Source: a virus (lineage: Duplodnaviria > Caudoviricetes). From it: a DNA stretch of 37,895 nucleotides. Positions 1,334 to 25,001 of this stretch are shown here, piece by piece. The stretch covers positions 1-37,895 of the IMG/VR virus record IMGVR_UViG_3300010398_000009; one strand, 5' to 3'. The notes under the pieces were generated by a model. The model was not told the DNA's origin and searched no databases. It saw only the letters and a list, made by a program, of their open reading frames with translations. Position numbers and translations under genes: made by a program. Each line of letters opens with the position of its first letter. Positions within the stretch are counted from its first letter, which is position 1.

Positions 1334-1806
1334 TGGGCATCCGCCTTTCTGCGCGCCTTGCGGGTCTTCCGGCTGCGACGCTTACGCGTCTTGCGGCGCT
1401 TCGGAGCGTCTTGGTTCTCCAGTTGTTCCTTGCGCGCTTCGCGTGCTTTGGCGAGCGCTTCGGGATTGCCGAGAGATTCGCCGCGCGCGAGACGGTCTTC
1501 GACGACGCGCTGGGCGGCGTTGCGGCGAACGCGGGCGATGAGTGTCGCCCGCTGGCGATCAATCGTCTGGACGATGCGCGCGGGAATCACGATCCGCGCG
1601 AGGTATTCTCCGCCGCTGGGATGCGGGAGTTCCGTCTGTAGCAGGATCGTGTCGGCTCCGCTTTCGCGGACTACCTGGACGATGTAGACGGCCGTTCCGC
1701 CGACGTTCAGGATGTTTGCGGTGTCTCGGACGATCTGCGGCTCCGTCAGCATGTTTGCGGTTGCGAGCAGACGATCAAAACGGTCGGGCATCAATGTTTC
1801 GTTCAT
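1330..1806 (-). CDS. Hypothetical protein with basic C-terminal tail (158 aa), first gene of the leftward operon that ends in the integrase
   Basis: GGAG RBS, coupled overlap with the next gene, and a K/R-rich tail. Confidence 0.7.
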   Translation of the reverse strand: MNETLMPDRFDRLLATANMLTEPQIVRDTANILNVGGTAVYIVQVVRESGADTILLQTELPHPSGGEYLARIVIPARIVQTIDRQRATLIARVRRNAAQRVVEDRLARGESLGNPEALAKAREARKEQLENQDAPKRRKTRKRRSRKTRKARRKADAQ

Positions 1807-1854
1807 GGTCGGTTGTCTCTCCGTTCAGTCAAAGTCAAAACAAGTCGAGTCACT

Positions 1855-1883
1855 AGTATGTTAGATGAGCGTAAAGTTTGCAA
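1855..1883 (-). promoter_or_regulatory. Sigma70-like promoter for the leftward (integrase) operon
   Basis: Minus strand TTGCAA-N17-CATACT. The -35 box overlaps a TTGCAAGTTT repeat. Confidence 0.5.
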
Positions 1884-2176
1884 GTTTTTTGCAAGTTTTA
1901 GTTCCACTTTGATGGACTTCGTTCGACGTGGAGCCGGTTGGGAGCGGATCGAGTTTTAACGAAAAGCCTAGCGTTTTTACTCGAAAAACGGCGGAAAAGC
2001 GCGGAATCTGGTTGACGCCGGAACGTGCTTGATTAAATCTCGCTGAGCATGTCCAGGTTGGCCGCTTTCCTTAATGTTTCTCGCGATTCCTGAGATTTTT
2101 GCAAGTTTTTTGCAAGTTTCGTCGCTCTGCGCAGCCAAGTAAGTCCAACAACGTCCAACAACGTCGAACTAACGAC
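1877..2176. other. attP-like noncoding region with arm-type repeats
   Basis: TTTGCAAGTTTTTTGCAAGTTT occurs in direct orientation at about 1877-1898 and 2098-2119. 10-bp-periodic GTC(C/G)AAC repeats lie at about 2143-2169. The region is AT-richer and sits between divergent operons. Confidence 0.5.
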
Positions 2177-2282
2177 TTTAAGCGAAAACGCTCGACTTTT
2201 TGCGGAAATCGTTAGATTTCTGTCACTGAACGGCGTTAGAATCCGCGTGCCTCTGTCGGTTCTCTGACGCTGGAAAGCCTGT

Positions 2283-3572
2283 ATGCAAATGCGTCCGGAT
2301 GGCGTCGTGGTCGCCGGTCATGGCGGACCAGGAGTCTTCGTCGACGGTCGCCAGATCGTCCCTCCGACTGCCGGGAACGACCCGTCCTGGATCGCCGCTG
2401 GACGCGTCCTCTGCAACGACGAGCACTCCCAACTATCGACGCTCGACGCGGACGGTTCTAATCGCGTCCTGGTCGATCCGCGTGGCGCTTCTCGCGTCGC
2501 GACGGATCCGGATGCGCCAGACGCGACGTTCTGGGCGGCGTTCCTGCAGGACGGTAAGACCGGCATCTATTCCAGCTGGGGTCTGTCGGTTCCGGCTGGC
2601 GAACTCTACGCGATGCGCGCGGGAGCGCTGTTTGGGCGTCAAAACTTTCAGAGTCCGGGCGGATTGTGCGCGTGGATTGTTGGCGATCCTGATCCGTCGC
2701 GGCTGCTCTGGGATGAACCGTCCGCCGTCGTCGTCGAGTTCTCCGCCTTGTCCGCTCAGGAAGTTCTCTGGACCGACAACGCGCGGCAGCTTCGCACGCA
2801 TGGCCTTCCAGCGCCACAGCAGACGGCTCCGAGTTTCGGTCCGCGCGTCTTCCGCGTGCGGAACGCGCTCTATCTGCTGGAATGGCGTGACAGTCTCGGA
2901 CTGGTCTTGCGTCCCTGGATGGATGCGTCGCACGGCTGGATCGTCGATCCGGGCGAAGCGTTCGGACCGTGCGGACGCGTCGACGATGCGCGCGTCCTGC
3001 TCGCATGGTCTCCAAACATTGCGGAACAAGGACCCGTCAAGCGCGGCGTCGTCGACACGACGTCGAAGATGTCGGAACTCGTTCCGGTTCCGGAACCCAT
3101 TCCGCCCGATCCCGTTCCGCCCGATCCGGAACCGCCACAGCCAGAACCTCCGGATCCAACGCCGCCCGATCCGGAGCCGATTCCTCCGCAACCTGAACCG
3201 CCGCAACCGGGAGGACGCGTCGTGGAAATTTCTTTGTCATCGGTTCAAGCGTTCGACAGTCCGGAGACCGTTACCGAAGTTCCGCATCCAGACGGTCAAG
3301 GACTGGTCGCCTTGCAGACTGCCGCTGGACTCTTTAAGTCCATGGCTCCAGGTGGAATCTGGGACGACGACAAGCCATCCGCGGGAGCATGGGAACGTTT
3401 CCTCCCGTATGGCGGCGTCTATCTGCACTATGACGGCGACACGCAGACGACTTACAGCGTCGCGCTGATCAGCGTCGTGATCCCGTATTCGCAGTCGACG
3501 CAGACGCAGACCGCGCATGTCACGCACGCGGGACCGAAGGTCCGCGCGCACAAAGCGAGCGCGGCGCGATGA
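2283..3572 (+). CDS. Multidomain protein: beta-rich N-domain, Pro/Glu/Asp linker, fascin/beta-trefoil-like C-terminal repeat
   Basis: 429-aa ORF with a PEPIPPDPVPPDPEPPQPEPP linker. VALQTAAGLFKSMAPGG...AGAWERF resembles a fascin repeat. Confidence 0.7.
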   Translation: MQMRPDGVVVAGHGGPGVFVDGRQIVPPTAGNDPSWIAAGRVLCNDEHSQLSTLDADGSNRVLVDPRGASRVATDPDAPDATFWAAFLQDGKTGIYSSWGLSVPAGELYAMRAGALFGRQNFQSPGGLCAWIVGDPDPSRLLWDEPSAVVVEFSALSAQEVLWTDNARQLRTHGLPAPQQTAPSFGPRVFRVRNALYLLEWRDSLGLVLRPWMDASHGWIVDPGEAFGPCGRVDDARVLLAWSPNIAEQGPVKRGVVDTTSKMSELVPVPEPIPPDPVPPDPEPPQPEPPDPTPPDPEPIPPQPEPPQPGGRVVEISLSSVQAFDSPETVTEVPHPDGQGLVALQTAAGLFKSMAPGGIWDDDKPSAGAWERFLPYGGVYLHYDGDTQTTYSVALISVVIPYSQSTQTQTAHVTHAGPKVRAHKASAAR

Positions 3573-4780
3573 CGCGACTAGTCCAAGCGGCTGCGCGCAG
3601 TAACTTTTGGTTCGGCGGACACAAGAAGCCGCTACCGCCGACGTCGTATCCGGTCTGGCCGCAACCAGCGCGCAGTCCGCTACCGTCGATTCCGTCTGCT
3701 GATATTCCGGACTGGAGTCGGCATCCCAGCGGCACGCCGGGGGTCTGGGTTCAGGCTGGCCACACGTACGACAACGTCTGGCCGCAACTACCGCCGACAC
3801 AACCAGAACTCAAATGGCTGCGTGGCGATTACTTCGGCGTGAGAGTCCCAGGGATTCCGCTTCTCCCGAACATGGCCGGATACACGGTGTCCTCGCCGCC
3901 ATGGAATCAGAATCGCGAACCCTATTGTCCGCCGATTATGGCCATGGACGTCATCCGGTATTACAAAGCCGGAATGCTGGACGTCGTCGACGAGATCATG
4001 AACGCGCACATTGCCAGAAGTTATACCCATTTCCAGTTGTCCATCGGCCATTGCAATTCGTTCGGTCTGACCATTGATCAGACCGTTGAACTCGCGATCC
4101 GCTTGCGTCTGAAGATGCGGTATCTCGATTGCTGGTTCCTCGGAGGGAACTGGGGGAAATACTGGGACGACGGATCGCAGCACGAAGAAATGCGCGATAG
4201 AGATCGCGACTACTGGTCTCCGATCTTGTTGCCCTGGATTCAAGCACTCCGGAGCAATGGCGTGATGTCGATGGCCTGTAAAGGCTGGCAAGTCGACAAC
4301 TGCAATACGCAGAGTCCGCGCAGCAATAGCAAGTATCCGAATCCCTGGTTGTCGATTACGCAGTTCTTCGCGGAAGAAATTACCGCGCATAACATTCCGC
4401 TTGGCTGTCACTACATTAACGAAGCCGGAATGGTCTTGACGGACGACGGCAGTATCAGTCGGCAGCAAGCATGGAAGATGAAGCGCGGCATGGTGTCACA
4501 CTGGCATCATCAAGGCGACGTCTATTGTCCCGTCGACGAATACCAAGCACGTCTCGTCGATTCGCTGAAAATGTTTGGGGATGGCAGTTGTGGCCAGTAT
4601 GCGGATGGCCAGCCGTTTCAGTTAGTCGTCTGCGAACACAGCGCACAGTCGCAGTTTGATCTCTGGTGCCATGAAAACGAAGCCACGGTCAAAGGTCTCC
4701 GGCTCACGCAAACCCACGCCGCGACGACGAGTCCCGGCTATAGCGGCAGCGCCAGCCAAGTCGACGGTACGGCTGCGTAA
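3569..4780 (+). CDS. Hypothetical alpha/beta enzyme-like protein, possibly glycoside hydrolase-like (403 aa)
   Basis: Long coupled ORF, rich in Trp and other aromatics, with a Pro-rich N-terminus. The fold call is inference only. Confidence 0.65.
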   Translation: MTRLVQAAARSNFWFGGHKKPLPPTSYPVWPQPARSPLPSIPSADIPDWSRHPSGTPGVWVQAGHTYDNVWPQLPPTQPELKWLRGDYFGVRVPGIPLLPNMAGYTVSSPPWNQNREPYCPPIMAMDVIRYYKAGMLDVVDEIMNAHIARSYTHFQLSIGHCNSFGLTIDQTVELAIRLRLKMRYLDCWFLGGNWGKYWDDGSQHEEMRDRDRDYWSPILLPWIQALRSNGVMSMACKGWQVDNCNTQSPRSNSKYPNPWLSITQFFAEEITAHNIPLGCHYINEAGMVLTDDGSISRQQAWKMKRGMVSHWHHQGDVYCPVDEYQARLVDSLKMFGDGSCGQYADGQPFQLVVCEHSAQSQFDLWCHENEATVKGLRLTQTHAATTSPGYSGSASQVDGTAA

Positions 4781-4805
4781 GCTGCAGTCTGCAGGAGCGC
4801 GCGCG

Positions 4806-5000
4806 ATGGAACAGGAACGACGCGAACATCAGCGGCGCGACTTTGGCGGCACCTCCGCTGTCGTCGTGCCCTCGCTGAAGGAACTGCGCGAGCGCGCGAC
4901 GAAGGACTTCGGCGCGACGGCTGCGGCCAAGTTGGACGATGTCTCGATTCGGGCGTATTTCCAGACGCGCGAATGGCAACGGCTCCAGGAGCGCAAGTGA
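4806..5000 (+). CDS. Hypothetical protein (64 aa)
   Basis: AGGAG RBS upstream of ATG 4806. Confidence 0.55.
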   Translation: MEQERREHQRRDFGGTSAVVVPSLKELRERATKDFGATAAAKLDDVSIRAYFQTREWQRLQERK

Positions 5001-5715
5001 ATCCGTGTGGGTCTTCCGATGGATCTTCCGGCGCAAGCGACGCTGGTATGTCGTCGTCGCGCTGGTCGTGCTCGGACTGGCCCTGCTATATCTCAAATGG
5101 GCGGCGACGATGAGGGTTCACGCCAACGATCCGGCGATTGAAAACTACTCCGACAGCGACTGGAGTCACACGGGCCGGAGCGCGCTGGAGATTCCGACGC
5201 TGACCGAGATTCGCGAACTGTTTCGCGAGGAACGGCTGCGCACGGGTCTGCAGATTCTGTCGCCCGACGTTGGCGCGCGCAGTCTCGGCGCCTTCGTCCA
5301 TCAGCCGAACTTCGACGGACGCTTGTCCAAGCGGCGATTGTCGCCAGCCGAACAAGTCCGCGCGGACCAGCAAGCGGAACGTAATCGCTGTCTGGCACAA
5401 CAGCGACGCCGCGACCGTGAACAGACCGCACGGCTGGCCCGTCAACGCCAGAGCACGCCGCCCAAACCGCCCATCGTCGATCTGGCGGTGCAACTGCTAT
5501 CGAACGTCGAACTGCGGCAGATGCGACGCGTCCTGCTCTGGCTGGCCGCTCCCGGCGTGACGTTGACGGAGAGCGAAGAGCGGCTGAAGAACGAATGGTT
5601 CCATCCGTGTCTGCGCGAATGCGCCAGACGCCAGATTTCCGAGAGTTTCGACGCGAAGAGCGACCAGACGAACGAACCGCCATGGCATCCCGACGCGCTT
5701 TCCTCCGGCTGCTGA
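4939..5715 (+). CDS. Hypothetical protein with N-terminal transmembrane segment (start uncertain, probably near 5005)
   Basis: RRKRRWYVVVALVVLGLALLYLKW is a TM helix followed by a soluble helical region. Confidence 0.55.
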   Translation: MSRFGRISRRANGNGSRSASESVWVFRWIFRRKRRWYVVVALVVLGLALLYLKWAATMRVHANDPAIENYSDSDWSHTGRSALEIPTLTEIRELFREERLRTGLQILSPDVGARSLGAFVHQPNFDGRLSKRRLSPAEQVRADQQAERNRCLAQQRRRDREQTARLARQRQSTPPKPPIVDLAVQLLSNVELRQMRRVLLWLAAPGVTLTESEERLKNEWFHPCLRECARRQISESFDAKSDQTNEPPWHPDALSSGC

Positions 5716-5936
5716 CGCTCACAGCCGCGTCGTCGGTCCTGGACCTGGATCGGCTCCTCTGGGTTTCAGGACGAACTACGTACTTTGACATCCAACAAGC
5801 GTCAACAACGCCGTATCTGATTCACAGTCCAACGCTGTCAGAAATCCTCGCGACCGTCTGGCAAGACGTCATCAAGACGCATCCGCTCGACAACGTCTTC
5901 CACAGCAAGGCACTGCTCTACTCGCTTGAAGTGTAG
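5682..5936 (+). CDS. Small protein: twin-arginine-like N-terminus plus major-capsid N-arm homology segment (84 aa)
   Basis: Starts MASRRAFLRLL. Its C-terminal PTLSEILATVWQDVIKTHPLDNVFHSKALLYSL aligns with MCP PNLGQVVATVWEAVIGDKPTDAVFNARALLFAL. Confidence 0.75.
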   Translation: MASRRAFLRLLTLTAASSVLDLDRLLWVSGRTTYFDIQQASTTPYLIHSPTLSEILATVWQDVIKTHPLDNVFHSKALLYSLEV

Positions 5937-6045
5937 AAAAAGATTGCAATGGCGATAGGAGCGTCGATCTCTGGTCCCAGCCGTCTTACTACCCGCGACG
6001 CGCGTTCGTCGCGCTGAGACCGTTTAATCGCCTTGTGACGTGCTC

Positions 6046-6420
6046 ATGCGAACAACTGACACACTGATCAACGTCGCGCACTTGCCAGATGCTCCCATCT
6101 GGCCAGCCATCGTCCCATATCTACGGGTCGAACTCCCCAAACGTCCGGCCCCACACCGAATCGAAGTCGCCTTACCGGAAGACAGGTCTAGCAACGCTTA
6201 CCGACAACTAACCACGCTGATCGTCGGCTGCGCGCGCTGTCATCGTCCCATCCATCCAGTCCGCCAACGTAAAGGCTGGCAAACGTCCTGCCTCTCCGTC
6301 AGTTGCGACCTAGACACCAACATCAGTTGTTCGCGCTCCGCTCAGGCGACCAGAGCGGTTAATCGACTCATCAAAGCGATCCAACAGTGGCACAAGGCAC
6401 AAAACCCAACGCTCCTATAG
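6046..6420 (+). CDS. Hypothetical Cys-containing (possible Zn-binding) protein
   Basis: CARC...C...C...C pattern in a roughly 124-aa ORF. Confidence 0.6.
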   Translation: MRTTDTLINVAHLPDAPIWPAIVPYLRVELPKRPAPHRIEVALPEDRSSNAYRQLTTLIVGCARCHRPIHPVRQRKGWQTSCLSVSCDLDTNISCSRSAQATRAVNRLIKAIQQWHKAQNPTLL

Positions 6421-6431
6421 TAGAAACCGGC

Positions 6432-7064
6432 ATGCGCGTCCTGGTCGGCTGCGAATCGTCCGGCATCGTCCGCCAAGCGTTCCGCCACGCCGGACACGAC
6501 GCATATTCCTGTGACCTGGTCCCAGCCGCCGATAACCAGACGTTCCACTTGCGCTGCGATGTCCGCGACGCCATCCGCCGCGACTCTTGGGACTTGCTGA
6601 TCGCGCATCCGCCCTGCACCTATCTGTGCCGCTCGTCCGTCTGGGCGTTGCACCGCACGTCGGCAAACCCGACTCCCGGCATCCTCTACAGCGACGCCAG
6701 ATGGTCCGCCATGCGCGACGCGGCGACATTCTTCCGCGACCTTCTGGACGCTCCAATCCCGCGAATCGCTGTCGAAAACCCCGTCCCGCACGGCTACGCA
6801 CGCACACTCATCGGTCCCTACCAGCAACTGATTCAGCCCTACCAGTTCGGAGACGACGCCAGTAAAGCGACGTGCCTTTGGCTCAAAGGACTACCGCCGC
6901 TCATCTCGACACGTCTGGCCTTCCCACGACTGGTCAACGGACAACCGCGCTGGCAGAACCAAACCGACTCCGGCCAGAACAAACTTGGCCCATCAAACCG
7001 TTCCGCCAGACGCTCCCAAACATTTCCCGGCATCGCGGATGCGATGGCCCAACAATGGTCCTAA
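6432..7064 (+). CDS. Phage DNA cytosine methyltransferase-like protein
   Basis: MRVLVGCESSG (motif I variant), DLLIAHPPC (catalytic PC, motif IV) and AVENP (motif VI). Confidence 0.85.
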   Translation: MRVLVGCESSGIVRQAFRHAGHDAYSCDLVPAADNQTFHLRCDVRDAIRRDSWDLLIAHPPCTYLCRSSVWALHRTSANPTPGILYSDARWSAMRDAATFFRDLLDAPIPRIAVENPVPHGYARTLIGPYQQLIQPYQFGDDASKATCLWLKGLPPLISTRLAFPRLVNGQPRWQNQTDSGQNKLGPSNRSARRSQTFPGIADAMAQQWS

Positions 7065-7225
7065 CTTAAGCGCGCGAGCCGCCGATGAAGCCGACAGATC
7101 GCACAGCCGCCCCAAACGGTCCGAAATGTCAGCACTCCCGCGCTCCACAAACCTCCAGAACGCTCCAAGACACACGAACGCGCGTCTAATCGCGTCCTGT
7201 CAGCTAAACATTAAAAGATAGAGAA

Positions 7226-7603
7226 ATGCCGAGACAAAACAACGAACAATTGGCTTCGCCTTCAGTAGGTCCGACAGAGGAACCGTCAAAGCCATTCAGG
7301 ACGAAAAACCGTCTGGGAGTTCCAGGTCGCATCAGTAGCGAAGCGCGCGCTATGGCTCGTAAATTCATCAGTTCTGCGAAGTATCGCAAGTCGTTGAAAC
7401 AGCGCATCTTAGACGGACACGCGCAGCAGCTAGAGATCGTTCTGTGGCATTACGCGTATGGCAAACCGCGCGAACAGGACGCGACGCCAGCCGCGCTTAT
7501 TCAAATCAATATGCCTGGAGTCGACGGCCGTTCTGGGCCGTTGCCGGAAGTGCTGATGCTACCGAAAGAGGCGAAAGTCTTAGAGGACGACGAAGACGCG
7601 TAA
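7226..7603 (+). CDS. terS: Putative terminase small subunit (DUF5681-like)
   Basis: F..KNRLGVPG...EARAMAR...LWHYAYGKP pattern typical of terS-like proteins, followed by an AT-rich noncoding region. Confidence 0.55.
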   Translation: MPRQNNEQLASPSVGPTEEPSKPFRTKNRLGVPGRISSEARAMARKFISSAKYRKSLKQRILDGHAQQLEIVLWHYAYGKPREQDATPAALIQINMPGVDGRSGPLPEVLMLPKEAKVLEDDEDA

Positions 7604-7623
7604 AATCCTTAGGAAAAACGTCA

Positions 7624-7651
7624 ATGTCCGATAATGTATATTATGTCGCTT
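7624..7651 (+). other. dif: dif-like XerC/XerD recombination site
   Basis: ATGTCCGATAA-TGTATA-TTATGTCGCTT versus E. coli dif GGTGCGCATAA-TGTATA-TTATGTTAAAT. The 16-bp core ATAATGTATATTATGT is identical. Confidence 0.75.
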
Positions 7652-7666
7652 TGGCATTGCCTTTAG

Positions 7667-7679
7667 AATCAATAACTTA
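7667..7679 (+). promoter_or_regulatory. IHF binding site
   Basis: AATCAATAACTTA matches the consensus WATCAANNNNTTR exactly. Confidence 0.5.
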
Positions 7680-7988
7680 CCACAATTCGACTCTCTCAAG
7701 GTAACTTACTCTCCAGGGTCCGGCCGGAGCCTGTCCAAGACGCCATCTTTAGACGTGGTCACACTGTATATACAGCGCTCGCAGACACGACTTAGGCCAG
7801 TGCCACTTAGTTACGATTCGTTAAATTCATTGAATGATTTTGCAGAAAATTGCAGAACATAACGTTTGGAGGGTGATGGCACAGCCTATGCCCTATCCGG
7901 CTTTCGGGCGGACCGATCCCGGAAGGATCCTAGGACCTTTCACGGGGGGCGAAGCGGTCTCTCTCCGCGAAGATGTCCTTATATAGGA

Positions 7989-9326: not shown

Positions 9327-9613
9327 TTTCTAAAGCGTCCAGACGGATCGTTTTCTGATGTCGGCGGATCGGTGCCGACGATATGCGGTTCCGACTGACG
9401 CTCCAGTGTACGGATCGTCAACAGGTCCGCGACGTCGCGCACCAGCTTGCGCCAGCCGTCCGCGCGGTTGTGTCCCGTGACGTGTCCCAGCGCGAGCGTT
9501 TCGAGCCCGAACGGTTGTCCCGTCGATACCGTCCGCGTGCTGACCACGCGGACGGTATAGTTCGCGGACTGATCGGTCCCGGTCTTGTCGTTGACGATCT
9601 CGATCAGCAGCAT
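9323..9613 (-). CDS. Hypothetical protein (96 aa)
   Basis: IVND.TG....NY...G.V.GH.R..GW..LV pattern and a GAGG RBS. Confidence 0.7.
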   Translation of the reverse strand: MLLIEIVNDKTGTDQSANYTVRVVSTRTVSTGQPFGLETLALGHVTGHNRADGWRKLVRDVADLLTIRTLERQSEPHIVGTDPPTSENDPSGRFRK

Positions 9614-12936: not shown

Positions 12937-13772
12937 TTGCGTTTACTTTCCAGAAACTCCGCAATGCCACGATTGACCGCGTCGACTGTGCGCTGTCCCT
13001 TGCCGTAGGTTGTCGGTCCGTTCGGCGCTGGTAATGGCGCATCCGTCGCTCGCGTCATCCAAGCGACGAGGTAGCGCATCATGCCGCGCGGCGTCTTCCG
13101 CCGATCCGGATTGCCGATAAGCCACGCGTGCGCGCGTCGGCATTGATCCGCGATGTCCAGCGCGGGGAAATCCGTCTGCAGTTGCTTATAAGCCGATTCT
13201 GTCAAGATCCAGTCTTGCGATCCGCCAACGGTCGGAAAACTCATAATTGCTGGGGATTTGTCGATTTCGCGTTTCGCGGGTTTTGCCGTTTTATGCCTCA
13301 CCGCAATACGTTGACTGGGAGTAGAACGTAGATCTTTATGATCAAGAAAGATCTTAAGATCTTGATCAAGATCTTGAAGATCTTTAGGAATAAGATCTTG
13401 ATTGCATACGGTCGTATTACGGTCGTAATACGGTCGTATTACGGTCGTATTTTCTTTCTTGCGTTTCTTCCATCGTTGTTCGACGTTTTCGCGGTTCTGC
13501 TGGCCGATAGCCTGAGTCGCCGCGCGGAGCGTTTCGAGCGGCGGACTCCGCCAACCGTCGTCGTATCGGACGAACTTCGCCGCGATCCCTCGCCAGACGC
13601 GCGTCGCTTGCAGCGACGTTCGCAGTCCCATGATGCGCGCGCGCTCGGCATCGTCGAGCGGAATTGCGCCATGGTCGACGCTGTAGAGAACGAGCCGCAG
13701 ATAGCCGCCGATTTGTTCTACTGACATTTTCGCGATTCCATCTGACAAGAATTCCGTTGGTAGTACTTTCAC
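12933..13772 (-). CDS. Replication initiator (YdaU/DUF1376 N-domain, O-like)
   Basis: EFLSD...MSVEQIGGYLRLV...GAIPLDD at the N-terminus, AWLIGNPDRRKT.RGM.RYL..W at the C-terminus, and internal iterons. Confidence 0.8.
   Translation of the reverse strand: MKVLPTEFLSDGIAKMSVEQIGGYLRLVLYSVDHGAIPLDDAERARIMGLRTSLQATRVWRGIAAKFVRYDDGWRSPPLETLRAATQAIGQQNRENVEQRWKKRKKENTTVIRPYYDRNTTVCNQDLIPKDLQDLDQDLKIFLDHKDLRSTPSQRIAVRHKTAKPAKREIDKSPAIMSFPTVGGSQDWILTESAYKQLQTDFPALDIADQCRRAHAWLIGNPDRRKTPRGMMRYLVAWMTRATDAPLPAPNGPTTYGKGQRTVDAVNRGIAEFLESKRK
13330..13450. repeat. Replication origin: four 11-bp iterons plus an AT-rich AGATCT cluster
   Basis: TACGGTCGTA(T/A) x4 at 13407-13450 and about six AGATCT copies at 13330-13400, all inside the initiator gene as in lambdoid origins. 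Confidence 0.75.
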
Positions 13773-15318: not shown

Positions 15319-16076
15319 TCGTGCTCCCTCGGCGTCTGTCGCGCTTTCGCGTGCGCTTTCATCGCTTCCCAGCGCGAATTATCGAATGTCACCAGATGTC
15401 GCCGGTAATCGTTCGACGATTCCCTCCAAGCGCGGTGTAAGGCTTCCGTTCCTTCGTCCGCGACTAGCTGGAGTTCCGCCAGCCAGTCATAAAAGCCTTC
15501 AGGAGTCGTCTGGACCGGCGACTGCTGGACCGGACGTCCTGCAGCCGCTCCGTCGTCGTCTTCGTCGCTGGTAACGATTCCCAACAGGCTATTGGTCGTA
15601 TATCGCCGCCCATAGGTAATCGCGGAACCCAGTGACTGGATCGCGTTCTTGCTGCCAGACGTGTCCGCGACCGACAGGAATTCCGTGTCGATCTGGTGTC
15701 CGTCCTGATGCGCCAGAATGCCGATGACCTTGACCACGTTCGGCTGCGGCCATTCGGTTCGGTGCGAGAGGGAAAATCCGTGACGGGTCAAAACTGGGCG
15801 GATCGTGCTGATGATCTGCTCCAGCGTCGCAAACCGGCCGTAATTCGTCCGCCGGTCTTCGACGACGGTTGGGAGATCGCCTTGCATGGCGGAAAACGCG
15901 GTATCGAAGGACGTCTTCGCCGCTTGCGCGACGATCCGTTCCCGCATCGCGATCAGACGCTCCAGCTTGGCGACGTCGACGTCTGGATTCGTCGCCAGCC
16001 GTTCGAACATCAGCACCAGGTTGTCCGCTGGGACGGTCTCTGGGACAGCGGACGGAACAAGCGACGTCTTGGTCAC
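15315..16076 (-). CDS. erf: ERF family ssDNA-annealing protein
   Basis: FATLEQII..IRPVL..HGFS and QSLGSAITYGRRY...GI...EDDDG. Confidence 0.9.
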   Translation of the reverse strand: MTKTSLVPSAVPETVPADNLVLMFERLATNPDVDVAKLERLIAMRERIVAQAAKTSFDTAFSAMQGDLPTVVEDRRTNYGRFATLEQIISTIRPVLTRHGFSLSHRTEWPQPNVVKVIGILAHQDGHQIDTEFLSVADTSGSKNAIQSLGSAITYGRRYTTNSLLGIVTSDEDDDGAAAGRPVQQSPVQTTPEGFYDWLAELQLVADEGTEALHRAWRESSNDYRRHLVTFDNSRWEAMKAHAKARQTPREHE

Positions 16077-16084
16077 GGCTCCTC

Positions 16085-16204
16085 CTACCGGAGAATCAGC
16101 GACACGATCCAGTCCAGCGCTTTGGCGGACAGTCTGGAGACCAGGGCTCCAGCGACCAGGAGCGCGAGGACGAAGGCAGATACTTTCAGCAAGGCAACGT
16201 CCAT
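16085..16204 (-). CDS. 39-aa membrane peptide (not in ORF track)
   Basis: MDVALLKVSAFVLALLVAGALVSRLSAKALDWIVSLILR with a GGAG RBS. It fills the gap in the operon. Confidence 0.55.
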   Translation of the reverse strand: MDVALLKVSAFVLALLVAGALVSRLSAKALDWIVSLILR

Positions 16205-16238
16205 TGTCAAGTCTCCGTCCGTGCTAGACTCCGGGCCA

Positions 16239-16478
16239 TTACGTTCCTTGCGTTACCGATGCGGATCGCGCTCGCGGCTCCAGACACTTTTCCAGGTCTT
16301 CGCGATAGACCAGCAGCCGTCGTCCGCCCATCGTCACGATCCGAAGCCGATAGGACTCCTGGTTCAACAGATGCCGCACGGCTTTCAGGTCCAGCGATCC
16401 GTCCTCACGGACAAACCGGAATTCCCGCGCAATATCGCGCGTTGACATGTATTTCTGATCATCGGCGGAGGTCTTCAT
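16239..16478 (-). CDS. Excisionase-like (HTH_17/MerR-type) DNA-binding protein
   Basis: KYMSTRDIA...GGRRLLVYREDLEKCL pattern. Confidence 0.65.
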   Translation of the reverse strand: MKTSADDQKYMSTRDIAREFRFVREDGSLDLKAVRHLLNQESYRLRIVTMGGRRLLVYREDLEKCLEPRARSASVTQGT

Positions 16479-17481: not shown

Positions 17482-19167
17482 TTAAGCGAACTTCGCCCGG
17501 AGATCCTGGAGGGTCCGACCGATAGCCTGTTGCGGCATCTGCTCCGCTTTCCGTCGCGTCGGACTCGGACGCGAATTGCAGAAGTATCGGAAGTCGTCCG
17601 CCGCGTGATCATCGCCCGTCGTGTCCAGATCGTCCGGATCGTTCGGACTCTGTCCCAGCATCGGGACCGTTCGCAGAAAATACTTACAGCGCGGATTTAC
17701 GCTGATCCAGGGACGTCCGTCCGGAGCCGGTCTCAACAGATCGTGGCATTGCTGCCAGCCGTTCGCACCGCGCGTATTGTCGCCGCGTCGCATCGGCAGA
17801 CGACAGCGCGACAACGTCTCCGCGATAGCTTCGCCGCGTCCATGTCCGGACTTGTTCCACATGGACGGATCCGCGACGATGTAACGGAGCCGTGCGGATT
17901 CTGGAATCATCGCTTTAATCAGCTTCCAGATCTGCGTCGCGACGACTGGCGCTGGCGTCTGGGAAAATTTCAGTTCGACCGCCCGATGGTAGTGACCGTC
18001 TTCCAAACAGGCCCAGAGCGCGAAGACTCCTGGAGCATTGAATCCCCAGTCAAGCGATCCGACCCAGTCGCATTCGGCCGGAATGATTGGATCGTCGACG
18101 TGCCACGGTTGTTCGTCGACGGTCGAACGCCATTCCGAGAAAAACCGTCCGTCCCATGCGGTCCAGTCGCCTTCCAGCAGTTGTCGCCGTCGTTCCTCGC
18201 GCAACTGTTCCAGCGTGGATCGGTAGTTCTGATCCAGATACGGATTGTCGTCGAGTCTGGCACTGACGAACGCGTAATCATCCGCCCGATAACGCGGATA
18301 CGTTTCGGGATCCGGCTCCCGGTCGACAAACAGATCCTTAACCCAGCGCGCATTTTGTCCGCCCGGATTGGTCGCCGCCCAGACTTTCGCACCGCCAAGC
18401 GCGGTATGCACGGACGGATTACTGGTCCGCGCGCGGCTCATGATCTCCAGCGCTGGTCCTTCTGGGAATGTCACCAGTTCGTCAATGACAATGACGTCGT
18501 ATTCGGTCGACAGATACGCGATGACATCCGAGTCGGTCTCACAATGGCCAGCGGAGATCTTCGCGCCGTTCGGAAAGACGGCGGACCGATCCGACGTCCG
18601 GAAGACGCCGCCGATAGTCGGCAGTTCCCGAATCATCCGCTCCAGGTGCGTCTTATCCAGTTCTTTGTATGTGCGTCTGAGCAACAAGCCGGAGAAATTC
18701 GGGATCGCGAGCGCGTAGCGATACAGACCCCAGCGGAGCGTATGCGACTTCGCACCGCCAGCCGCTCCGCCGTAGAGCACGCGCATTGTCTTTAATTGTT
18801 GTTCGAAGAAATCGACCGCGCGCGGTGTCGGGACATAGACCGCCGTCGGCGGATGTCCTGGTTCGGTCGATGGACGCCACATGGACCACGCGTTCTGTCT
18901 GGCCGTGCACGCTGGCGACGAGCACAACCAGACATCGAGCGCGTTCCAGAAGCGTCCTCCACACCAGCAACAACGTGCGTGCGGATGCCATGTGACCGTG
19001 TTCGGATGGAGGAGTCGTTCGCGCTCGACGTGCTTGACGGCGGCGTCCATCGCGCGCGCGGACGCGTCCTTCGCGGCTTTGACGCGCAGCCAGTAGCGCG
19101 CGGTGTCGCCGCCGAACTCGTTGTTGGGATCGGCTAGTGCGTCGTGGGTTTTTGCGCGCCTTGCCAC
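17482..19167 (-). CDS. terL: Terminase large subunit with N-terminal Cys-rich extension
   Basis: Walker A YGGAAGGAKS, Walker B IVIDEL, ATNPGG coupling motif, LDWG and DHAADDFRY nuclease motifs. The ORF opens at 19218, and GTG 19167 is the more plausible start. Confidence 0.92.
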   Translation of the reverse strand: MARRAKTHDALADPNNEFGGDTARYWLRVKAAKDASARAMDAAVKHVERERLLHPNTVTWHPHARCCWCGGRFWNALDVWLCSSPACTARQNAWSMWRPSTEPGHPPTAVYVPTPRAVDFFEQQLKTMRVLYGGAAGGAKSHTLRWGLYRYALAIPNFSGLLLRRTYKELDKTHLERMIRELPTIGGVFRTSDRSAVFPNGAKISAGHCETDSDVIAYLSTEYDVIVIDELVTFPEGPALEIMSRARTSNPSVHTALGGAKVWAATNPGGQNARWVKDLFVDREPDPETYPRYRADDYAFVSARLDDNPYLDQNYRSTLEQLREERRRQLLEGDWTAWDGRFFSEWRSTVDEQPWHVDDPIIPAECDWVGSLDWGFNAPGVFALWACLEDGHYHRAVELKFSQTPAPVVATQIWKLIKAMIPESARLRYIVADPSMWNKSGHGRGEAIAETLSRCRLPMRRGDNTRGANGWQQCHDLLRPAPDGRPWISVNPRCKYFLRTVPMLGQSPNDPDDLDTTGDDHAADDFRYFCNSRPSPTRRKAEQMPQQAIGRTLQDLRAKFA

Positions 19168-19169
19168 GG

Positions 19170-19208
19170 CGTCAAAATATTGACACGGATCAAGGTCGCC
19201 GGTAAACT
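19170..19208 (+). promoter_or_regulatory. Sigma70-type promoter for the portal, with GTCAA-N4-TTGAC inverted repeat
   Basis: TTGACA (19180-19185)-N17-TAAACT (19203-19208). Confidence 0.65.
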
Positions 19209-19226
19209 GCGGCAGCACAACCGGCT

Positions 19227-21260
19227 ATGGCGTCGACCTTGTTCCCGTCGCTGGCCGCTCCGCCGACTGCTCCATCCATCGATCCGACTGCCGCTCCGCT
19301 CGTCCGTCCGCTCCCTGAAGGCGACGGAGTCGGCAGCCTGAAGTTCTGGCAGTCAGAAATCCAAGCGGCGAAGGACGGGATTACCCGCGAACTCGCGAAA
19401 TGGCAGACGAACGTTGAACGCTATCGCGGACAGCCGTATACCATCGCGACGTTCCCGCAAGCGGAATTCATCCAGGTCAACGTCGACTTTTTCAAGACCG
19501 AAGCGAAGCGCGCGCAACTGTTTTTCAGAACGCCAACCGTTGTCCTCAGTCCGAAACGGCCGGACTGTGCAGCCGCTGTCCCCACGTTCGAAAGTGTCCT
19601 GAATGAAATGCTGGGACCGCATGGCGTGAACAGCAAAGTCGCTATCGACGAAGTCCTCACCGATGTCCTCATGACCGGGATCGGGTTTGTGGAAGTCGGC
19701 TTCGAAGGTCATGTCCTGCCAGCGGCTCCGGCTCCGCCAATGGCACCAGGAGCCGTCTTCGGACTGTCGACGCCGCCCGCGACGCCGCCCCTGGTCCAGT
19801 ATCCGCGCTATTACGTGCGTCGCGGGACTCCGGCGAAATTACTCGTTCCGGAAGATTTCACGGGTAGCAATTACGACGATGCGGACTGGTTGGGTTTTCA
19901 GTATTACGTTGATGATTCTGCGTTGGATCTGCCGGAAGGGACGCGCGCTGGTCGCGGACCGATCAATATCCTGGACGATGATCGATTGATTCGTCGTCCG
20001 TATACGACGTCGCGACGACAGGGACGCCGCTGTACGAAGATCTGGTATCGCGCCAGCAAGATCGATTTGACCGAACCGAATCCAGACAAATTCCGGCTGC
20101 TGGTCCTGGTCGACGGGATCGACGATCCATACAAGCACGAGGATTCGCCGTGGCAGCAATTCGACCAGGACGGCGAACAGATCGCGGGAGTGCGCGGTAA
20201 TCCGATCAAGGTCTTGACGCTTCGCTATACGTCGGACTGGCATTTTCCGGCTAGCGATACGCAGATGTCGCGCTTTCAGACGGACGAGTTAAGCAAGATC
20301 AGAACTCTCCAGATGATGCAAAAGGCCAGATCGATTCCGATGCGCTGGGTCGACAGGAATCGAATGGATCCAGCGGACATCGCGAAGATCGCAACCGGAG
20401 AAATGCAAGCGATCATTCCGCTCGACGGACCAGGAAACGAATTGATCGGTGTCGTCGCACAAGCCGCGCTCCCGCGTGAGACGTCGACATACGGCGACAT
20501 GATCGAGAACGACATTAACCAGACGTGGGCACTGGGAAGCAATCAACAGGGAGTCACAACCGACACGACGAAGACTGCGACGGAATTGCAGTTGATCCAG
20601 TCGAATACTGACGTTCGCATGGATGCGGAGCGCGGACGCGTCCTGTCCTGGTTTGTGACGATTGCGGAGGGAATCGGCGGACTACTTCAGCAATTCGCGG
20701 ATCTGCCGCAGTACACAAAAGTCGTCGGACCGAATGCGGCTCAGGAACTCCAAGCATGGGACAAGACGACGATTGCTGGTCGATACGTTTATGACGTCAA
20801 GCCGGATTCATCGGTCCGCGTCGACGTCGCGGCAGAGAAAAAGGAAGCGCTGGACTTCTACCAGCTAACCGTCCGCGATCCGGGATTCAACGCGATGGAA
20901 TCACGTCGACATCTGGCGACCGTCTATCGGCTCGATCCCGCGCGCATGGTCGTTCAACCGCCGCAACCTCCGCCCGATAAGCCGTCGCTGTCGCTGTCGT
21001 TGACAGCCGTCGATCTCACGAATCCGATGGTCGTGTCGATCCTGGGACAGTGTGGATTCAAGATGGATCCGCAAGCGCTCCAGCAAACAATCGCGATGCA
21101 AACACAGCACGCGGGTTTAATGGCGAACGCGGTCCACAGTCCAGCCGCTCCAGGACAACCGCCACAACTGCCAGCCGCGCAGCATCCAGGTCCAGCCTTG
21201 GAACAGTCGCCGCTCAATCAGCACGCCGCCGACGCGACGGAAGCTGGAGGACATCGCTAA
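19227..21260 (+). CDS. Portal protein (podovirus/P22-like)
   Basis: 677 aa, first gene of the head module, with KTATE motif and a Pro/Gln-rich tail. Confidence 0.85.
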   Translation: MASTLFPSLAAPPTAPSIDPTAAPLVRPLPEGDGVGSLKFWQSEIQAAKDGITRELAKWQTNVERYRGQPYTIATFPQAEFIQVNVDFFKTEAKRAQLFFRTPTVVLSPKRPDCAAAVPTFESVLNEMLGPHGVNSKVAIDEVLTDVLMTGIGFVEVGFEGHVLPAAPAPPMAPGAVFGLSTPPATPPLVQYPRYYVRRGTPAKLLVPEDFTGSNYDDADWLGFQYYVDDSALDLPEGTRAGRGPINILDDDRLIRRPYTTSRRQGRRCTKIWYRASKIDLTEPNPDKFRLLVLVDGIDDPYKHEDSPWQQFDQDGEQIAGVRGNPIKVLTLRYTSDWHFPASDTQMSRFQTDELSKIRTLQMMQKARSIPMRWVDRNRMDPADIAKIATGEMQAIIPLDGPGNELIGVVAQAALPRETSTYGDMIENDINQTWALGSNQQGVTTDTTKTATELQLIQSNTDVRMDAERGRVLSWFVTIAEGIGGLLQQFADLPQYTKVVGPNAAQELQAWDKTTIAGRYVYDVKPDSSVRVDVAAEKKEALDFYQLTVRDPGFNAMESRRHLATVYRLDPARMVVQPPQPPPDKPSLSLSLTAVDLTNPMVVSILGQCGFKMDPQALQQTIAMQTQHAGLMANAVHSPAAPGQPPQLPAAQHPGPALEQSPLNQHAADATEAGGHR

Positions 21261-21275
21261 TCAGAGGGACATCGC

Positions 21276-21455
21276 ATGATCCCGATTTTCACACTGCTAT
21301 TCTGGTTCGTGATTCTCGGCGTCGTCGCGTATCTGATCGAAACCTATCTGCCGATGCCAGCGCCGTTTAAGATCGTGATCCGCGTGATCATTGTCGTCGC
21401 GGCGATCTGGTTGCTTCTAAGTTTCATCGGTGTTCCTCCATTGCGGCTGCGATGA
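21276..21455 (+). CDS. Small two-TM membrane protein (Thivi_2564-like, 59 aa, not in ORF track)
   Basis: MIPIFTLLFWFVILGVVAYLIETYLPMPAPFKIVIRVIIVVAAIWLLLSFIG with a GAGG RBS. Confidence 0.75.
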   Translation: MIPIFTLLFWFVILGVVAYLIETYLPMPAPFKIVIRVIIVVAAIWLLLSFIGVPPLRLR

Positions 21456-22177
21456 AAAAGCACGATGCGCCAGCCGTTCATACCGACGCGCTCTGGGACG
21501 GTCCGCGCTGGATCGAACACACGGGAAACACTCCCGTCTATGTCGAGACGAAGTCCGAATACTGGGACTTGCTGAATCGGACCGGCCATCGCATGAAAGG
21601 CCAGCAGGAGTCGTCCACTGGTCCAGAGCGCGATCCGTCTGACATCCAACGCGACGTCATCCCAGAGTCGACGCCAGTTGTCCATCCGCTGTCCTATGAC
21701 GAAGCGACGCTATTCTTCGCGTCCGGCGTCGTCTGGAACAATCTCGGACTCCGCGAAGCGCTGTCATGCGAGATCTGTTTTGCGCTGGGACGTCATCCAG
21801 GAATGCGCGTCATTGTCGGGAGCGCGTCGATCTCCGTGCGCTGTCGTTGCGGAGATCGGAATTACGTCGGTCCGCGCGGGACGACGGACTTACCGACGAA
21901 GCTAGCGAATACCGCGCGCGTACTCGGAGACTCGGGAACAGGTCTCATCTTCGACGCGAACGGACAACCGGCAAACCTGCCGACGATCCGACTGTTGCCA
22001 GAGGAAACGAAGATCCTTCAGCAATATCAACGGATGCTGAATGCGCGTCGCATAGAACCGCGCGTCTTTTGTGTCGGCTGCTGGAATGGTCGGACGACGG
22101 AAGGCCATCAAGCCGAACTCTCCATTACGTCAAACGGCGTCATCGTTACGTGCCGCTGTCGGCTCCGCGTCAGTTAG
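21452..22177 (+). CDS. Hypothetical protein with two Zn-ribbon-like repeats
   Basis: CEIC...CRC and CVGC...CRC. Confidence 0.7.
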   Translation: MKKHDAPAVHTDALWDGPRWIEHTGNTPVYVETKSEYWDLLNRTGHRMKGQQESSTGPERDPSDIQRDVIPESTPVVHPLSYDEATLFFASGVVWNNLGLREALSCEICFALGRHPGMRVIVGSASISVRCRCGDRNYVGPRGTTDLPTKLANTARVLGDSGTGLIFDANGQPANLPTIRLLPEETKILQQYQRMLNARRIEPRVFCVGCWNGRTTEGHQAELSITSNGVIVTCRCRLRVS

Positions 22178-22258: not shown

Positions 22259-23245
22259 ATGGCCGAGACGTCAACGCCAGCGACGACGACTCCCGCGACG
22301 AGCGCGCCAGCCGCTCCGTCTCCGGCTCCGTCGTCGACGCCAAGCACTCCCAGCCAGTCGCCGTCGACATCGTCCAGTCCCGTTCCGTCGACGCCAGCGG
22401 CGAAGCCGTCTGGCGGTTGGTTCAAGCAGGAACTGTCGAAAGCGTTCCAGCCGCCCGCGACGACGCCGCCGACGACGCCGCAGATCGATCCGGCCATCCG
22501 CGACCAATGGATGAAGGAAGCGCGGACGAAGTTCGAATCGGACTTCGCGCCGTATATCCAGATGGCCGCGAGTGTCACGCCAGAGGACTTTCGCGTCGCC
22601 GCTCCGTATCTACAAGCACTCGCGCGCGATCCGCATCAATTCTTTCTCGCGCTCGCGCAGCACTACGGATACCAGGTCAGCCGTCCAGGACAGCCACAGC
22701 AACCGCAAACAATCGCCGCTCCGCAGGATGACGAACCTCCGCCCGATCTGAGAACCGCAGACGGACAATTGCTGTATTCGAATACGCAACTGGCGAAGCG
22801 CGAAGCGTGGCGCGAAGCGCGCTTGATGCAAAAGATCCGCGCGGACTGGAACAAAGAGATCCAGCCATTTCGACAGGTCCAGCAGGAAGCAGCCAGCGCG
22901 CAATTCATGAAGCAGATCGAGTCCAAGGCGTTCGCGCTCATCAAAGAAGCGGAGACTTGGGAAGGCTTCACCGATCTGCGCGGTCATATCGCGCAACTGA
23001 TGAAGCAGGACAAGCGCGTCACCCTTCACAGCGCTTACCAGCGCGCCTATCGCGACCATTACGCACCAGGACGCGACGAAGCCTTGAAAAAGCAATGGAC
23101 GGAGGAACAGGCGACGCGTTCGCGCGCGGCGTCGACTGGCGGATCGCCGGGAACAACCGTCCAAGGACGAACGACAGGTCCGATCAACGGATCAACGCGG
23201 GACGCATTCCGTCGCGAACTCGCGGATCGCTTGGGGATTCACTAA
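22259..23245 (+). CDS. Capsid scaffolding protein
   Basis: Low-complexity N-terminus and helical/coiled-coil body, directly upstream of the MCP. Confidence 0.75.
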   Translation: MAETSTPATTTPATSAPAAPSPAPSSTPSTPSQSPSTSSSPVPSTPAAKPSGGWFKQELSKAFQPPATTPPTTPQIDPAIRDQWMKEARTKFESDFAPYIQMAASVTPEDFRVAAPYLQALARDPHQFFLALAQHYGYQVSRPGQPQQPQTIAAPQDDEPPPDLRTADGQLLYSNTQLAKREAWREARLMQKIRADWNKEIQPFRQVQQEAASAQFMKQIESKAFALIKEAETWEGFTDLRGHIAQLMKQDKRVTLHSAYQRAYRDHYAPGRDEALKKQWTEEQATRSRAASTGGSPGTTVQGRTTGPINGSTRDAFRRELADRLGIH

Positions 23246-23262: not shown

Positions 23263-24237
23263 GTGGCAGATCCTAATCTGGGCCAAGTCGTCGCGACTGT
23301 CTGGGAAGCCGTCATCGGAGACAAACCGACAGACGCCGTCTTTAACGCGCGCGCATTGCTATTCGCGCTCAAAGGCGAAGGGTATCAAGAGGAAGTCTCA
23401 GGTGGACGATTGTTCGAACTGCCGATTGAGTACGCCGAAAATACGAATTTTCGGCAGTATGGCGAACTGGAACAGTTGGACACCGTTCGCGTCGACACCT
23501 TCGACGCGGCCAGATACGACCAGAAAATCAACGCGGGAACCATTGTCATTTCCAAGCTGGAAGAAATCCGGAATACCCCGTCCGGCCGGAAGCTGGATGT
23601 CATTTCCGCGAAGCTGGAAAATGGCAAGAATTCAGCGCTGGCCACGATGAATAGGAACCTCTGGACTGGCGACGGCTCCGGCAATAACTTCGACGGTGTC
23701 ACGCGCATCATCTCCAGCACGCCAACGACTGGCATTGTCGGCGGTATTGATCGGTCGCTCTGGTCGTTCCATCGGAATCGACAAGTCTCCGGAACGAAGA
23801 CCTCGCAGCCGTTTGACAATCTGACCGCAGCCGCGCGCTCCTGCTACAACCTGTGTTCGCTTGGCGGCGTCGAGATGACGCCAACCGCGATTATCTCGGA
23901 TCGCGCGAGCATGGAAGGTTATGAGTCGACGCTCACGCAGATCGAACGGTTGGTCCGCGATGACGGGAAAGCGGCTCCTGGTGACAGCGGCTTCTTGAAC
24001 GATGCCATTAAATACAAAGCGGCTGGCTGGTTCTATGACGAGGACGCCGTGGCTGGCGAAGCGCGGTTCCTAAATCCGAAAGCGCTGAAGTTTATGTATC
24101 TGTCCGGCGCATGGCTCAAAATGGAACCCCCCGTCGATCCCGCGAACCAGTTGGTTAACGTGACGAAAGTCTACACGTTTGGCAATCTTGGCACTGGCGG
24201 ATCGCGTTACCTTGGCGTTGTAACTGGCATTAACTAA
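23263..24237 (+). CDS. Major capsid protein (HK97 fold)
   Basis: 324 aa after the scaffold, AGGAG RBS, and SGG..F..PI.Y..N and VGGIDR..WS..RN motifs of a podoviral MCP family. Confidence 0.88.
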   Translation: MADPNLGQVVATVWEAVIGDKPTDAVFNARALLFALKGEGYQEEVSGGRLFELPIEYAENTNFRQYGELEQLDTVRVDTFDAARYDQKINAGTIVISKLEEIRNTPSGRKLDVISAKLENGKNSALATMNRNLWTGDGSGNNFDGVTRIISSTPTTGIVGGIDRSLWSFHRNRQVSGTKTSQPFDNLTAAARSCYNLCSLGGVEMTPTAIISDRASMEGYESTLTQIERLVRDDGKAAPGDSGFLNDAIKYKAAGWFYDEDAVAGEARFLNPKALKFMYLSGAWLKMEPPVDPANQLVNVTKVYTFGNLGTGGSRYLGVVTGIN

Positions 24238-24255: not shown

Positions 24256-24996
24256 ATGGGAATCTCTGCTCCAGTTACAGCATTCGGACAAGGTCTCTAC
24301 GCCGCGAAAGCGACGAACAGCGCTGGTATTGCGCTCGGCTCGCTAATGGAAAATTCCGGCCGAACGTATCGCTTCGGTCAGGCTGGCGCTGCCGCGTTGG
24401 TCGCCGGACAAGTCCTGCAGATGGCAGTCCCGGTCGCGAACAATGTCAATCTGGCGGTTGTCATTGCGGCTCCGGCGACGCAGACGAATATCGGAGATCG
24501 CACGGTCACCGTGACCCTTGGCGCGAGTCCGCTGACAGCGAACCAGTATGCGGGCGGATACGTGAATATCTCGACGGGTCCTGGGAACGGTTACGTCTAC
24601 CAGATCGCCAGCCATCCAGCGGCATTGTCAGGCAATGTGACGATCAACCTGAATGAGCCGATGCAAGTTCCGTTGACCAGCGCCAGCAAGGTCGATCTGG
24701 TCGCGAATCCGTATGCTGGCGTCATCGCGACTCCGGCGACGACGCTTACGGGCGGCGTCGTTGGCATTGCGACGTCGCCGTGTCCGGCGAACGGGTTTGA
24801 CTGGTTCCAGGTGGGCGGCTCGGCATCTGTGCTGATTGCCGGGACTCCGGCTGTCGGTCAATCCGTCTCCGCTCCGTCTGCTGTCGCGGGAGCGGCAGCG
24901 ATTAACTCAGGAACGCTCGCCATTATCGGCCAGATGCTGGCGACTGGCGTTGATACGAAGAATTGCCCGGTTCTGCTGACTGGATTCGTGTCGTAA
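24256..24996 (+). CDS. Capsid decoration/cement protein 1
   Basis: Follows the MCP, Gly/Ala-rich, with GRTYRF.Q and W.QV.G motifs. Confidence 0.7.
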   Translation: MGISAPVTAFGQGLYAAKATNSAGIALGSLMENSGRTYRFGQAGAAALVAGQVLQMAVPVANNVNLAVVIAAPATQTNIGDRTVTVTLGASPLTANQYAGGYVNISTGPGNGYVYQIASHPAALSGNVTINLNEPMQVPLTSASKVDLVANPYAGVIATPATTLTGGVVGIATSPCPANGFDWFQVGGSASVLIAGTPAVGQSVSAPSAVAGAAAINSGTLAIIGQMLATGVDTKNCPVLLTGFVS

Positions 24997-25001
24997 ATGC
25001 A

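Follow-up and report, generated by a model that had tools for sequence, protein, structure and literature searches.

A phage mini-protein family that places copied pieces of head proteins behind a twin-arginine-type leader

Why would a phage carry, 17 kb from its major capsid protein (MCP) gene, a small gene whose product begins like an export signal and ends like its own capsid? The question is raised by P0001, an 84-residue protein encoded in the window, that is, the whole stretch of 37,895 nucleotides analysed here, which is a complete circular phage assembly with a 123-nt terminal repeat. An earlier note on this DNA had described P0001 as a membrane- or Tat-targeted mimic of the capsid N-terminal arm that might serve as an assembly tether, a poison for competing phages or a decoy. 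The features on which the argument draws are the following.

5682..5936, plus strand: whole gene of P0001, an 84-aa mini-protein made of a leader and a capsid segment; top match of the family profile, with a start that fits the M-x-RR start of the family
5682..5741, plus strand: residues 1-20, SRRAFLR twin-arginine motif and a 14-residue mildly hydrophobic stretch; predicted helix 2-19
5742..5786, plus strand: residues 21-35, conserved family core, consensus DPERLLWVPGxKTIF, here DLDRLLWVSGRTTYF; predicted short helix 22-25
5787..5828, plus strand: residues 36-49, variable linker, of low confidence in the model
5829..5927, plus strand: residues 50-82, copy of MCP residues 4-36; predicted helix 52-66, loop, helix 76-83
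23272..23370, plus strand: source segment, MCP residues 4-36, the inferred N-terminal arm (by position)
23263..24237, plus strand: MCP, 324 aa; phrog_9953, NF033394, weak PDB 6j3q match
17485-19218, minus strand: terminase large subunit
22259-23245: putative scaffold
36896-37894, minus strand: integrase

The translation of P0001 begins MASRRAFLR. It matched no family in Pfam, PHROG or NCBIfam and gave nothing significant against 50,697 GenBank phages; a single-sequence search returned only P0001 itself, among 2 candidates, and the ESM Atlas matches are unnamed clusters at about 0.9 or lower. The identity of the MCP is supported by phrog_9953 (E 2e-33) and NF033394 (163.8 bits, cut-off 80), with a weak match to the major capsid protein of PDB 6j3q (E 2.4e-4).

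Several other features of this genome were observed. The terminase large subunit gene (17485-19218, minus strand) lies head to head with a probable portal gene (19227-21260, plus strand), and both have homologs 47-55% identical in the MCP relatives. The ORF between the probable portal and the scaffold (21452-22177) has a zf-UBR-like Pfam match (E 7e-7) and is conserved, with homologs in 10 related contigs. The two ORFs after the MCP (24256-24996 and 24963-25787) are adjacent paralogues, 35% identical, and probably serve in capsid decoration; the tail of one family member (P0145) matches the cluster formed by their homologs. Two large ORFs, 2299-3468, which contains a proline-rich linker, and 3569-4780, share a plus-strand block with the P0001 gene and match no family, while ORF 31334-32650 (438 aa) contains an internal repeat of 159 nt, 75% identical (31393-31548 versus 31606-31758). 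An Erf/YqaJ recombination pair is also encoded. Long palindromes or inverted repeats, possibly operators or terminators, are found at 306-331, 1143-1207, 9526-9558, 13347-13385 and 13406-13449, and no sigma-70-like promoter was found in 1800-7700.

The resemblance to the capsid protein was examined from the protein and the DNA side. The alignment of residues 50-82 with MCP residues 4-36 given in the earlier note is correct, being ungapped with 16 of 33 residues identical. Its Smith-Waterman score of 90 was reached by none of 5,000 shuffles against the MCP (maximum 48), nor by any of 150 shuffles compared with all six frames of the window (maximum 66), and tblastn gave an E value of 1e-8. The separation of 17 kb likewise stands (17,327 nt from gene to MCP, on the same strand), and the gene does end where the homology ends, with the stop 2 residues past the last aligned identity. 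At the DNA level, the match of 5848-5873 with 23291-23316 was reproduced at 23 of 26 nt; over the whole copied segment 61 of 99 nt are identical (blastn E 0.029), and the degenerate codons of identical residues are the same in 9 of 15 cases against 6.1 expected from codon usage. Because shared codons barely exceed this expectation, the DNA match adds little to the protein match. A recent DNA duplication was rejected; the P0001 tail is a diverged protein-level copy.

The tail alone missed phrog_9953 (E 0.1), and its link to the MCP therefore rests on the direct alignment and on local profiles. With 33 of the 324 MCP residues copied, the full-length capsid fold is absent from P0001, and the structure model predicts no compact fold (pTM 0.32, pLDDT 66). 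We infer from their position that residues 4-36 form the N-arm helix, the AlphaFold2 model of the MCP having a pLDDT of 39.8. Against its own MCP the P0001 tail scores 91, slightly less than the 98 reached with the MCP of L281, a 73% identical relative, and it keeps an N and an S that are typical of most related MCPs and lost from its own. A similar segment occurs in 13 other proteins, and the hydrophobic helix face is well conserved over 14 aligned tails.

P0001 belongs to a large family. Four viral contigs share its first 60-75 residues, and a degenerate pattern for the core motif retrieved 45 viral loci, each of which encodes a short protein that shares the leader but differs greatly from the others in its tail. 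A leader profile matched 3,452 clusters at 50% identity with E values up to 0.001 (1,460 at 1e-10) and 2,382 of 7,995 scored candidates at 90% identity, where the weaker matches may include ordinary Tat signals. The family matches listed are 46-174 aa long; the members listed from the 90%-identity search are without a Pfam domain and carry only the name "hypothetical". No longer fused forms were present among 7,992 scored candidates, which is weak evidence. In 401 genomes of one bacterial phylum the leader profile gave a single match, on a phage-like contig, and a genome scan located the family at 2 loci, one in a bin titled Bryobacteraceae and one in a bin titled Armatimonadota, the binning of phage contigs being unreliable. 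By tblastn of the leader alone and of whole members against the 50,697 GenBank phages, a search of low sensitivity with such short queries, no leader-bearing cultured phage was found.

Within this family the leader module stays constant while the cargo is exchanged. Conservation is far higher in the leader core than in any tail, identical leaders are joined to different pieces (P0091, P0078), and one member (G041) has a tail of only 2 residues. The proteins with a segment similar to that of P0001 are scattered on the leader tree (13 changes against 13.3 for shuffled labels), and tail types are not clustered on it; this tree has 37 columns and few supported branches, and was used only for the lack of clustering.

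The leader has several marks of a Tat signal. The earlier note had compared it with the Tat consensus, and SRRAFLR (residues 3-9) indeed fits, with R replacing K. A motif of the form RR-x-hydrophobic-hydrophobic lies 10-18 residues upstream of the core in all 41 distinct leaders (background 1.1%), which were retrieved by a pattern for the core motif alone, blind to the arginines. Among leader-ranked members, F occupies position +3 in 149/149 and N, S or D directly precedes RR in 133/149 (150 minus 1 not parsed), with the caveat that the ranking profile itself contains RR. Tat targeting is well supported at the level of the motif; no transmembrane helix is predicted from the P0001 sequence. A transmembrane anchor, uncleaved and of the Rieske type, was rejected, as the highest 19-residue hydropathy sampled was 1.22. 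The hydrophobic stretch is short, with 14 residues from F to D and a family mean hydropathy of 1.9.

The predicted layout of the leader resembles that of a known Tat signal. The helices predicted at 2-19 and 22-25 of P0001 correspond to those at 2-20 and 22-26 of the TatBC-bound MdoD signal, and what TatC reads in that structure is the set of features seen in the family, namely the consensus motif, a helix-capping residue and the invariant F (PMC13323110). Tat is described, in the available text of another study, as tolerating unstructured cargo of small size (PMC6708511), and 236 of 241 family tails (≤120 aa) fall within the size range given there. TatC is encoded in both bins that hold a family member and in 46/46 genomes of one of these bins' phyla, including one unpublished genome (G086). 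Together, motif and predicted helix layout make it likely that the leader binds TatBC.

The hallmarks of a cleaved signal are less evident. Small-x-small triplets occur in P0001 only at 13-18, near RR, and at 28-30, and no clear peptidase site was found after the c-region helix in the leader family. P0001 matched neither TIGR01409 nor PF10518; among relatives, only 2 of 10 (ids P0002-P0096) passed the TIGR01409 cut-off, and PF10518 gave weak matches in 14 of 44, none above its cut-off. P0001 resembles what is described for Tat signal peptides and hitchhiker co-export (PF10518/TIGR01409; PMC13323110, PMC6708511 and PMC4273604, in their available portions) in the SRRxFL motif, the helix-capping residue, the long plus short helix and the small cargo. 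It differs from them in that its leader is phage-encoded and runs into a near-invariant DPERLLWVPG core (found in 1 of the 401 genomes of the one phylum), in that its cargo is a capsid fragment, and in lacking a clear peptidase site and scoring below the HMM cut-offs.

Where a source can be identified, the tails are drawn largely from head proteins. For 150 members ranked by leader score alone, the tails were compared with a database of 9,460 six-frame ORFs in which MCPs make up 0.93% of residues. At an E value of 0.01, 35 of the 150 tails found a match, and 32 of these 35 matches are MCPs; the remaining three are another capsid-fragment ORF, a probable portal and one without assignment. Three sets of shuffled tails gave 1, 0 and 0 matches and reversed tails gave 0. 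The other 115 tails are without a match and hence without an identifiable source. With the null threshold set to 1%, two local MCP profiles recognized 108 of 241 tails; this set includes 120 proteins chosen by a profile holding the tail of P0001, a bias that inflates the count for the MCP class of P0001 and not that for the P22-like class. In both MCP classes the copied hot spot is the first 45-60 positions, where conservation is no higher than elsewhere, and the middle of the MCP is almost untouched. Some tails join pieces out of order, for example an N-terminal plus a C-terminal piece in G002.

When 316 tails were compared with 36 protein families common to the contigs, five families were matched: P22-like MCP (69 tails), the MCP class of P0001 (16), portal (5) and two with single matches. 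None matched the polymerase, helicase, Sak4, exonuclease, scaffold or terminase profiles, and 0/316 matched either of the two scaffold-labelled families. A terminase Walker A piece was recognized in 2 tails, by motif and PHROG. Annotated capsid proteins in GenBank, for example those of the phages Mx8 and PAE2, are also matched by tails. By eye, the tail of a leader-bearing protein in a bin titled Armatimonadota (L243:1730-2170) resembles joined terminase motifs, with a BLAST E value of 0.67, which is not significant. A short ORF like the capsid C-terminal-type tails (G028 49796-50116, L086) has no leader score and may be a capsid fragment gene without a leader.

A further twin-arginine leader family, distinct from the first, was found at 82 loci with a search motif, and the RR motif is present in 75/75 of its members. 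Two of its proteins (L181, L192) carry the same MCP segment as P0001. Its tails match MCP, portal-like and tail-fibre families, and its cargo is not limited to head proteins, because four tails (L161, L222, L183, L224) match tail collar and tail-fibre domains. The second leader ends in an A-x-A-like c-region; A-x-A is the typical signal-peptidase cleavage site. Twin-arginine leaders without the DPERLLWVPG core were also seen at G036 15997-16290 (L101) and L002:9913-10137. The G036 protein carries an MCP N-terminal piece (E 6e-14), and the design therefore extends beyond the two leader families.

The earlier note had proposed to ask whether the tails of homologs follow the MCP of their own phage. 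They do: the capsid class matches in 10/10 tails, and the mean relative rank of the own MCP is 0.13 (p 2e-5, relatedness ignored; 10 tails). The own MCP is ranked first in 5/10, while in the other 5/10, P0001 included, the MCP of another phage outscores it. These 10 tails were selected by their score against the MCPs of other genomes, and those below 55 against every one were dropped, as were G045, whose "MCP" is the gene itself, G019 (a twin of G008), G005 (a doubtful MCP) and five near-duplicate MCPs. The clearest case came up blind: L291 had been retrieved because its MCP is 50% identical, and it proved to encode a leader protein. The tail of this protein reaches a score of 142 with the MCP of L291 itself, the next-best MCP giving 98.

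Neutral evolution, which the note had named as an outcome that would count against a function, was not seen in close relatives, where the tails are under purifying selection. The dN/dS values are 0.03/0.39 (G008 versus G019) and 0.04/0.23 (G044 versus L003), a ratio of 0.08-0.17. For the L291 tail against its own MCP dS is saturated and dN is 0.34, and for the P0001 copy against its own MCP dN is 0.58 and dS 0.68 over 37 codons (a ratio near 0.85), values that by themselves show no selection. Among 15 records, 13 of them MCP relatives and 2 that matched the pattern by chance, one contained the leader gene; it is absent from 5/5 complete relatives with MCPs 57-58% identical, and the gene is accessory. 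Of 29 family genes, 24 lie on the MCP strand. Many members adjoin terminase or portal, another group adjoins DNA polymerase, and the P0001 gene itself, 17 kb away from the MCP, is not part of the head operon.

The reading that we tentatively favour, without giving it an even chance, is that P0001 is a Tat-engaged decoy for a capsid-binding antagonist. The twin-arginine leader would dock on the host TatBC translocase, the tail would bind an antagonist that recognizes the capsid, and the bound antagonist would be held at the membrane or carried out of the cytoplasm. The target would probably be either a sensor of the host or an assembly inhibitor encoded by a prophage or satellite, binding free capsid monomers at the N-arm or on their P-domain side. 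Since an exact mimic would set off a sensor, a tag that pins or exports the partner would give the fusion a logic. To judge by gene position in relatives, the protein would be produced during lytic growth, and the placement on the MCP strand near terminase or portal fits a decoy made with the capsid. Being apparently made with the capsid, copied from it, dispensable and fast-turning, the protein looks like a counter-measure.

This decoy reading gains from the enrichment of MCP tails, the tracking of the own capsid, the purifying selection in relatives and the same segment behind a second leader. It also gains from what the copied surfaces are reported to contact. Scaffolds and the satellite factor CpmB both dock on the N-arm helix (PMC12749128), and the contacts predicted for CapRel lie in the adjacent P-domain, on its sheet and on the spine helix (PMC9712102), parts that other tails copy. 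The main point against it is that Avs7, Avs8 and Avs10, as far as their report is available, bind the MCP A-domain via large shape-matched interfaces (bioRxiv 10.64898/2026.01.04.697583); the A-domain, placed by position, is the middle MCP stretch that the tails avoid. The decoy idea of the earlier note thus stays the best guess, although not for these three sensors. Further points against it are that a peptide of 33 residues can only poorly imitate a fold and that no tails matched replicative proteins, which Avs sensors also detect. The short hydrophobic stretch of P0001, with no TIGR01409 or PF10518 match and no clear peptidase site, weighs in the same direction, as do the dN/dS of its copy, its better score with L281, its location outside the head operon and the 115/150 sourceless tails. 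A modular removal device, in which a constant Tat tag with swappable bait from the phage's own head proteins, in at least two leader families, would expel capsid-sensing defence proteins by hitchhiker export, is an idea that we regard as unlikely.

Half of the tracked tails prefer the MCP of another phage, which is what a poison for co-infecting kin might show. Its tail would insert into the capsid monomers of a related phage or take its scaffold, and the leader would drag them to the membrane or out. The kept hydrophobic helix face is as expected for binding in a capsid groove, and the N-arm is a scaffold docking site. However, the own MCP comes first in the other half and near the top overall, and most of the genes share the MCP strand and have head genes nearby, a position from which the phage itself would be hit first; we hold this explanation to be unlikely.

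The conservation of the core over the tails, the identical leaders with different pieces and the 2-residue tail of G041 would fit a leader that is itself the effector, occupying or jamming TatBC or binding another membrane target, with a tail that only stabilises or tunes it. Such an account is quite unlikely, as it leaves unexplained both the origin of 32/35 identified tails in MCPs and the tail dN/dS of 0.08-0.17.

Since genes often sit in the head operon, tails track the own MCP and the copied arm is a scaffold contact, the protein might instead help the phage's own head assembly by tethering procapsid precursors or scaffold at the membrane or by tuning their free concentration. An essential assembly factor was rejected, the gene being found in 0/5 complete relatives. 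This absence, together with pieces that differ widely (N-terminal, middle, C-terminal, portal, terminase motif), makes an assembly tether that the phage needs unlikely, and several members adjoin DNA polymerase instead; a helper of any kind is improbable.

Export of a small cargo by a Tat-like leader, with the A-x-A-like c-region end of the second family, would suit a periplasmic role outside the cytoplasm, such as superinfection exclusion or bait for an envelope factor. In the established assembly pathway, however, it is in the cytoplasm that capsid N-arms, portal pieces and terminase motifs find their partners. No clear cleavage site was found in the leader family of P0001, and we see little chance for this role. 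Neutral duplication debris behind a mobile leader, to which the P0001 ratio near 0.85 and the fast turnover of tails on the leader tree could be ascribed, is highly improbable, and for the family as a whole largely refuted, given in-frame matches confined to head proteins, enrichment of an MCP N-terminus that is no more conserved than the rest, and purifying selection in relatives.

The decoy reading has partial counterparts among known systems. In the accessible portion of its report (PMC11087589), the phage DSR2 inhibitor DSAD1 competes with the virion trigger for the sensor site, a likeness to the decoy proposed here; unlike P0001, that account gives neither a copied trigger piece nor an export leader, and DSAD1, unlike the P0001 family, has a known sensor. 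SaPI1 CpmB and the scaffolds concern the same capsid interface. CpmB, in the available text (PMC12749128), competes with scaffold for the N-arm and is satellite-encoded, whereas P0001 copies the arm and is phage-encoded; a CpmB-like character was not found, as the P0001 tail copies the arm and 0/316 family tails resemble scaffold. CapRel-SJ46 (PMC9712102, PMC11578894, both in their accessible parts) and Avs7/8/10 show free capsid monomers to be an immune trigger, which would give a decoy its purpose; they are host sensors, with contacts to the A-domain (Avs7/8/10) or predicted contacts to the P-domain sheet and spine helix (CapRel), not to the N-arm found in P0001. No description of such leader-capsid fusions was found in the literature searched, which comprised titles and abstract openings and few subscription papers.

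The P0001 family is a real, selected and undescribed modular family, for which a mechanism is proposed only. Across a family of thousands of small phage proteins, segments of head proteins have been copied again and again to follow an export-type tag. Should these proteins be decoys, such segments would map the capsid surfaces that are attacked in uncultured hosts, and would point to the N-arm, for which the examined parts of the literature name no immune sensor. Removal or pinning of a target by way of Tat, if true, would add a new principle of counter-defence.
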